The position numbers were made by a program, and so were the translations under genes. Source: Escherichia coli (lineage in GTDB: Bacteria; Pseudomonadota; Gammaproteobacteria; Enterobacterales; Enterobacteriaceae). Taken from it: a stretch of 41,409 bases of DNA. Where the stretch lies: assembly GCF_003334385.1 (NCBI RefSeq), contig NZ_QOWN01000039.1; one strand, given 5' to 3'. Of the stretch, positions 38,161-38,328 are shown one piece after another. Under the pieces are notes generated by a model. That model was given only the letters and a program-made list of their open reading frames with translations. It did no database searches and was not told the origin of the DNA. Within the stretch, counting starts at the first letter, position 1; every line of letters begins with the position of its first letter.

Positions 38161-38290
38161 AGAGACTCCCGTATACTTTCCTCAAAAATAAATGAAAATA
38201 GTTCTTATTTCAATTACGGAAAGACTCTTTTTTAAGCAAAGAATAGAAATATGAATAAAAATAATGGGCTACCAAAAGTAGCCCATTGAC

Positions 38291-38321
38291 AAAAAATGCG
38301 GCGATACTGGAAGGTATCGCC
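38291..38321 (-). terminator. Intrinsic terminator immediately downstream of chiA
   Basis: Hairpin GGCGATAC-(6-nt loop)-GTATCGCC followed on the minus strand by TTTTTT; starts 8 nt after the chiA stop; a second hairpin GGGCTAC-CAAAA-GTAGCCC lies at 38266..38284. Confidence 0.75.
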
Positions 38322-38328
38322 AACACAT

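Follow-up and report, generated by a model that had tools for sequence, protein, structure and literature searches.

The 168-bp spacer between chiA and bfd (38161-38328) in the analyzed stretch of E. coli DNA very probably serves two serial and independent functions: it carries a Fur-repressed sigma-70 promoter of bfd and tandem Rho-independent terminators of chiA. The stretch, referred to as the window in the following, has a length of 41,409 nucleotides. The strength, uniqueness and position of a match to a Fur weight matrix, the conservation of this match and the stability of two hairpins were established in this study, and the literature provides in vivo occupancy by Fur, RyhB-independent de-repression of bfd in fur mutants and repression of a lacZ fusion by Fur.

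The window belongs to a K-12-like E. coli: a 25-kb stretch of it matches genomes of the K-12 type with an identity that rounds to 100.0%, and at least 80% of this 25-kb query is covered in 3046 of 5426 genomes. Its gene content includes the gsp operon, bfr, bfd and chiA. According to the list of open reading frames (ORFs) and the RefSeq annotation under megablast matches ('chiA: bifunctional chitinase/lysozyme'), chiA is located at 38329..41022 on the minus strand and encodes 897 aa, with its stop codon TAA at 38331-38329. The gene bfd (37966..38160, minus strand; RefSeq WP_000289085.1) encodes the 64-aa bacterioferritin-associated [2Fe-2S] ferredoxin and starts with an ATG at 38160. It is followed after 71 nt by bfr (37418..37894, minus strand), which, by ORF list and annotation, encodes the 158-aa bacterioferritin, and gspO (36712-37389) was assigned on the plus strand from the ORF list and the RefSeq annotation under the matches. 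As chiA and bfd are both encoded on the minus strand, the spacer was read on this strand, leading from chiA into bfd. In this direction the stop codon of chiA is followed by two hairpins, each with a T-run, a 40-bp AT-rich stretch, the predicted sigma-70 promoter, a Shine-Dalgarno sequence and the ATG of bfd. An Rfam scan of 37300-38900 (E <= 1) yielded no match in the spacer and only a lone chance match inside chiA.

Except for one base, which lies outside of the Fur box, the spacer is identical to that of W3110. At position 38181, which is -21 relative to the ATG and lies 4 nt past the predicted -10 hexamer on the bfd strand, the window contains a C (a G on that strand), while W3110, ER1709 and CFT073 contain a T. 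In a comparison of the segment 37900-38400 with E. coli genomes, all of the best matches listed from among 3161 matching genomes exhibited 99.8% identity and none of them 100%.

A terminator scan of 37300-38700 did not reveal any terminator-like site between bfd and bfr (37895-37965), and transcription from the Fur-controlled promoter of bfd could therefore continue into bfr. In the literature, bfd is listed as a single-gene operon (PMC7157518), and bfd and bfr are described as differentially expressed (review PMC7762939). A second ChIP-exo peak from E. coli W, which was assigned to bfr, falls inside bfd (3667719-31).

Fur box and predicted promoter of bfd

The first-pass annotation had pointed to an imperfect AT-rich palindrome at 38188..38213, about 30 bp upstream of bfd. 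The string in question, AAATGAAAATAGTTCTTATTTCAATT, is indeed present and its near end lies 30 bp from the ATG of bfd, but its true place is 38190-38215 and thus 2 nt away from the position originally given. Nine of its 13 pairs are complementary. An equally good 26-nt palindrome was, however, obtained in 511 of 2000 shuffles (26%) of the stretch 38161-38262, which has a GC content of 25%. The palindromy of the element, originally read as a signal, is at chance level and was therefore dropped as evidence. The informative feature is a match to a Fur matrix, the axis of which (38200) is 2.5 bp apart from the axis of the palindrome (38202.5).

Consensus strings alone do not single out the Fur site of bfd. 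The 15-mer motif from ChIP-exo, TGAnAATnATTcTCA, matches 38193-38207 when two mismatches are allowed, but its three occurrences in the window are not significant against an expectation of 1.36. A search of the whole window for the classical 19-mer GATAATGATAATCATTATC, which is in another register than the 9-1-9 model, yielded no match with up to three mismatches. As the search with the 15-mer was not significant, a weight matrix was built instead. This matrix is symmetric, covers 19 bp and was derived from 17 published sites of MG1655 (fhuA, fepA-fes, fepD-entS, entC, gpmA, nohA, ydhY, sufA, ydiE, fadD, cir, mntH, exbB, ryhB, sodA, fecI and fhuF), with bfd being left out. Each cluster contributed its strongest Fur site, which was rebuilt from the genome coordinates given by Chen et al. 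(2007; PMC2189734). After correction for coordinate shifts between genome versions all 17 sites were found at offset 0, each with one to four mismatches to AATGATAATnATTATCATT. A Salmonella table of predicted Fur sites was judged too weak to be used as a training set.

With this matrix, the core Fur box AATGAAAATAGTTCTTATT (plus strand; the element itself is strand-neutral) was found at 38191..38209, with its center at 38200, which corresponds to -40 from the ATG of bfd. Its score of 19.65 bits is the highest among the approximately 41,000 positions of the window, the next matches reaching 16.8 and 11.5 bits, and is within the range of 16.4-27.8 bits obtained for the real sites in a leave-one-out analysis. 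Dinucleotide shuffling of the whole window produced such a score in four of 200 cases, and shuffling of the intergenic spacer in two of 5000. The score of the box is in agreement with Table 4 of Chen et al. (2007), which reports for bfd a score of 20.2 bits, three sites over 31 bp, the coordinate 3465053 and a position of -40 (PMC2189734). The coordinate 3465053 corresponds to position 38200 of the window, meaning that both analyses arrive at an identical center. The bfd row of that table carries neither the evidence code F nor G (PMC2189734).

Local maxima of the matrix were also observed 6 bp to either side of the center, at 38194 (-3.5 bits) and 38206 (-2.5 bits). These slightly negative maxima fit the previous report of three sites that overlap and together cover 31 bp (PMC2189734); for the flanking sites of E. 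coli W the scores are 1.1 and 6.4 bits. Assuming three sites spaced by 6 bp around 38200, the extended, strand-neutral Fur-binding cluster would span 31 bp (38185..38215) and cover both promoter hexamers.

Two further places in the window gave matches to the matrix. The second-best one (7683-7701, ACTGATGAAAATTATCATT, 16.8 bits) overlaps the start codon of a 458-aa ORF (7687-9063), which we take to be trkA by its length and position, and may be a chance product of the N-terminal MKIII codons. A cluster of weaker matches (11.5, 6.9 and 6.4 bits) is located at 26809-26864, within the first part of the ORF 26747-27562 and shortly after the spacer that separates the divergent gspA and gspC; by its place in the gsp operon this ORF is presumably gspC. 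This cluster is probably the intragenic gspC site that was gel-shifted by Fur in Chen et al. (2007).

The promoter scan predicted a -35 hexamer TTGAAA (38208..38213) and a -10 hexamer TATTTT (38185..38190) for bfd, both on the minus strand and separated by a 17-bp spacer (nine of 12 matches). The Fur box fills this predicted promoter spacer, shares 2 nt with the -35 hexamer and directly adjoins the -10 hexamer. Within a 1.4-kb region the scan found two promoter-like sites compared to a mean of 2.1 in shuffles, so that the promoter was called on the basis of its conservation and position. Indeed, an alignment of 11 enterobacterial sequences revealed that the TTG of the -35 hexamer and the leading TA of the -10 hexamer are invariant, with other genera having TACACT in the columns of the latter. 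A comparable architecture is present in L050, the only diverged relative found with a chiA-bfd junction. The Shine-Dalgarno sequence GGGAG (38166..38170, minus strand) lies 5 nt before the ATG of bfd and contains three positions which are invariant in the alignment (G232, G233 and G235). Together with box positions, the TTG and the TA, these are the only invariant non-coding columns of the alignment, and conservation ends abruptly upstream of the -35 TTG.

Hairpins downstream of chiA

The two hairpins which the first-pass annotation had placed at 38266..38284 and 38300..38321 were confirmed at these coordinates by a search for inverted repeats, and both of them exhibit the anatomy of intrinsic terminators. 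Hairpin T1 (38299..38322, minus strand), the first predicted terminator, starts six nt past the stop codon of chiA in the same orientation. Its core stem GGCGATAC/GTATCGCC (38321-38300) encloses a 6-nt loop, with the arms 38300-38307 and 38314-38321 forming a perfect 8-bp inverted repeat. It comprises nine pairs in total and is followed by the tail CATTTTTTGT with a T-run of six T (38296-38291). The second predicted terminator, hairpin T2 (38263..38287, minus strand), has the stem AATGGGCTAC/GTAGCCCATT, the arms of which (38263-38272 and 38278-38287) form a perfect 10-bp inverted repeat. It comprises 11 pairs and is followed by the tail ATTTTTATTC with a T-run at 38261-38257. The corresponding 96-nt RNA is predicted to fold into exactly T1 and T2, with a minimum free energy (MFE) of -35.3 kcal/mol compared to a mean of -14.2 for shuffled sequences (z = -8.2; none of 200 shuffles was as stable), and T1 is present in both the MFE and the centroid fold. 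From these features the two hairpins are predicted to be tandem intrinsic terminators of chiA, of the ordinary kind.

The first-pass annotation had described the chiA terminators and the control elements of bfd as interleaved. This description does not hold, as the terminators (38322-38253) and the promoter/operator (38215-38185) are arranged in series and are about 40 bp apart. The AT-rich stretch between T2 and the -35 hexamer (38214..38252, minus strand) exhibits no conservation between species. At 38242-38255 it contains a segment that forms a weak inverted repeat with the operator arm 38202-38215 (86% complementary), with the Fur matrix reaching only 0.76 bits at the corresponding center 38247.

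The hairpins could also be something other than terminators, either stabilizers of the chiA mRNA 3′-end or remnants of an insertion, in which case chiA transcription would enter bfd-bfr. In L050, where hairpins occur at both positions with other stem sequences, the equivalent of T1 lacks a good T-run and is followed by a GTTTCC tail only, which would fit such a role. The same applies to the fact that chiA is located between tuf and bfd in some E. coli only: the chiA-bfd junction is present in just 3161 of 5426 complete E. coli genomes and absent from the record of E. coli W. On the other hand, the stems in the window are GC-rich and perfect, 5-6 T follow them directly and on the chiA strand only, and the hairpins begin as close as 6 nt after the stop codon. 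Moreover, the fold is far more stable than that of the shuffles, and the T2 equivalent of L050 has kept its hairpin and T-run despite its different stem sequence. A dispersed, REP-like repeat was ruled out as the 501-bp segment occurs only once per genome. As a stabilizing and a terminating role are also compatible with each other, we regard the absence of a terminator function as unlikely and favor tandem termination.

Conservation and regulation of the bfd promoter

A protein scan for Bfd with one genome per species yielded 80 loci, of which 57 were examined together with the window for the 180 nt upstream of bfd. These loci span from Citrobacter, Kluyvera and Hafnia to Pseudomonas, Marinomonas and Alcanivorax. 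Of the 58 upstream regions, 54 had a best match to the Fur matrix of 14 bits or more and 57 one of 10 bits or more, and this match was always located 34-61 bp upstream of the ATG of bfd. In controls, for which the upstream regions were shuffled or 180-nt segments were taken from elsewhere in these loci, only 0.6% reached at least 14 bits.

E. coli W does not contain chiA at this place. Here, bfd follows tuf and its terminator, with tuf being its direct upstream neighbor. The chiA-linked box of the window and the tuf-linked box of E. coli W differ at four of 19 positions, yet their scores are 19.65 and 20.13 bits. Clear divergence between the two bfd alleles is also seen in the promoter, around the Shine-Dalgarno sequence and in the first codons. 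The sequences thus suggest that two old haplotypes of the chiA/tuf-bfd region may exist in E. coli. The bfd box is a good example of a site which is held at about 20 bits across alleles with four of 19 differences, across Gammaproteobacteria and next to differing neighbors (chiA or tuf).

Two additional observations were made among these loci. Many draft enterobacterial contigs (e.g., L012, L013, L016, L018 and L025) end 180-330 bp upstream of bfd, which fits assembly breaks within the duplicated tuf, the usual upstream neighbor of bfd. Four bfd loci of Marinomonas (L052, L055, L057 and L065) contain two strong Fur boxes of 15-22 bits each, at about -58 and -11. The latter overlaps the ribosome-binding region, while enterobacterial loci contain a single box.

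Direct control of bfd by Fur is textbook knowledge. The Fur operator of the gene is already known, with the exact site having been predicted in 2007 and covered by ChIP several times since. Intergenic ChIP-exo peaks of Fur at bfd were reported for W3110 (4173360-72) and E. coli W (3667868-80) (PMC10164565), and a ChIP-seq summit was reported for CFT073 (3898419; PMC7157518). When mapped onto the respective strain records, these peaks are 13-25 bp (W3110), 0-12 bp (E. coli W) and 9 bp (CFT073) away from the center of the box, hence within 0-25 bp in all three strains. The W3110 peak maps to 38213-38225, upstream of the box. Deletion of fur increased bfd expression 29.9-fold in CFT073 compared to the wild type. 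The ratio was 1.0 for a ryhB mutant and 22.6 for a fur ryhB double mutant (PMC7157518). Likewise, bfd was elevated in Δfur mutants of eight strains by a log2 of 2.3-7.3 (PMC10164565) and in Salmonella 5.9-fold (PMC3212961); the bfd entry for K-12 MG1655 in the pan-regulon table is N/A (PMC10164565). Furthermore, a bfd promoter-lacZ fusion was repressed by Fur, with stronger repression under anaerobic conditions (PMC4676285). No Fur footprint, gel shift or operator point mutant for E. coli bfd was found in the papers examined, and contacts of Fur at the level of individual bases are consequently inferred. The suggestion of the first-pass annotation that a Fur operator lies upstream of bfd is thus borne out by the matrix, by conservation and by published ChIP, expression and reporter data, and for all three kinds of test which it proposed published results already exist. 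This call, made from the sequence only, was right, and the present analysis adds little beyond its confirmation.

Under iron-sufficient conditions, Fe2+-Fur dimers would bind to the box at 38191-38209, with the weaker flanking sites extending the cover to about 38185-38215, and the bound Fur would exclude RNA polymerase, presumably by occlusion. When iron falls, Fur would lose its metal and leave the DNA, and bfd could be transcribed from a putative start site of the predicted promoter. The ferredoxin Bfd, which promotes the reductive release of iron from bacterioferritin (review PMC7762939), would then help to free the iron stored there. Upstream, T1 (38322-38299) and then T2 (38287-38263) would end the transcription of chiA. 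If they do so, the bfd promoter would be insulated from read-through and Fur would be its controlling input.

An extension of this model is conceivable in which Fur, possibly together with H-NS, might extend along the 40-bp AT-rich stretch, or form a loop across it, as far as T2. The idea arises from the 86%-complementary partner of the operator arm at 38242-38255, which lies beside the T-run of T2, and from the W3110 peak upstream of the box. If true, a silenced and horizontally variable chiA segment would be coupled to the iron control of bfd. Independently of this, the deviating base at 38181 might change the expression of bfd in the source strain of the window. We consider this extension to be very improbable.

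An alternative view would be that the AT-rich spacer is mainly a tract for H-NS or other nucleoid proteins belonging to a silenced chiA/gsp island, with Fur acting as an anti-silencer or competitor instead of a simple occluding repressor. Indeed, chiA and the gsp operon of K-12 have been reported to be silenced by H-NS. The GC content of 25% at 38161-38262 points in the same direction, as does the variability of the chiA/gsp segment, seen in the tuf neighborhood of E. coli W and in the 3046 of 5426 genomes covering at least 80% of the 25-kb query. However, deletion of fur raises and does not lower bfd expression, and an equal box with equal position and promoter architecture is found in genomes with tuf instead of chiA as neighbor and in distant genera. 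The AT-rich part outside of the box (38214-38252) is, in contrast, not conserved, and binding of H-NS would also be compatible with repression by Fur. This leaves anti-silencing by Fur extremely unlikely compared to its direct repression of the bfd promoter. It is hardly credible, too, that the element is a mere AT-rich promoter spacer, the palindromy and Fur-box likeness of which are accidents of low GC content (25%), with Fur acting on bfd indirectly: although 26% of the shuffles hold as good a 26-nt palindrome and the window shows no excess of matches to consensus strings, just two of 5000 composition-matched spacer shuffles attain the matrix score, score and position of the box are kept in 54 of 58 loci including those of the high-GC Pseudomonas and Alcanivorax, ChIP peaks center on the box in three strains, and de-repression in fur mutants is independent of RyhB, the usual indirect route.

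Comparison with known Fur boxes and terminators

The site described here corresponds in locus and position to the bfd operator of E. coli K-12 (PMC2189734, PMC10164565, PMC7157518, PMC4676285), from which the window differs by the C at 38181 (T in K-12 and CFT073). Like the classical Fur boxes of fhuA, entC, fepA-fes, cirA, ryhB, sodA and fecI, the bfd box is a 19-bp 9-1-9 inverted repeat of the AATGATAATnATTATCATT type placed over the -35/-10 region of a sigma-70 promoter, and its score is within the range of these boxes. It agrees with the classical consensus at 15 of 18 positions, the right half being the weaker one (GTTCTTATT vs. ATTATCATT). With 31 bp and three sites, the Fur cluster of bfd is short, as clusters elsewhere extend to about 140 bp. 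Its summit value in the ChIP-seq of CFT073 is 120.5, in contrast to 1530-5300 for fhuA, entC, cirA, ryhB and fhuF (PMC7157518).

In other Gammaproteobacteria, bfd is likewise preceded by a Fur box 34-61 bp upstream of its start, the score being 14 bits or more in 54 of 58 loci. A Pseudomonas-type box reads TTTGACAATCATTCTCATT, compared to AATAAGAACTATTTTCATT on the minus strand of the window. The upstream neighbor of bfd is chiA in the window but tuf in most Enterobacteriaceae. As to the hairpins, they resemble known tandem Rho-independent terminators in consisting of two GC-rich stem-loops with T-runs straight after a stop codon, although for chiA this function is predicted. The predicted chiA terminators differ from these in being located at the edge of a chiA segment which is missing from many E. 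coli genomes.
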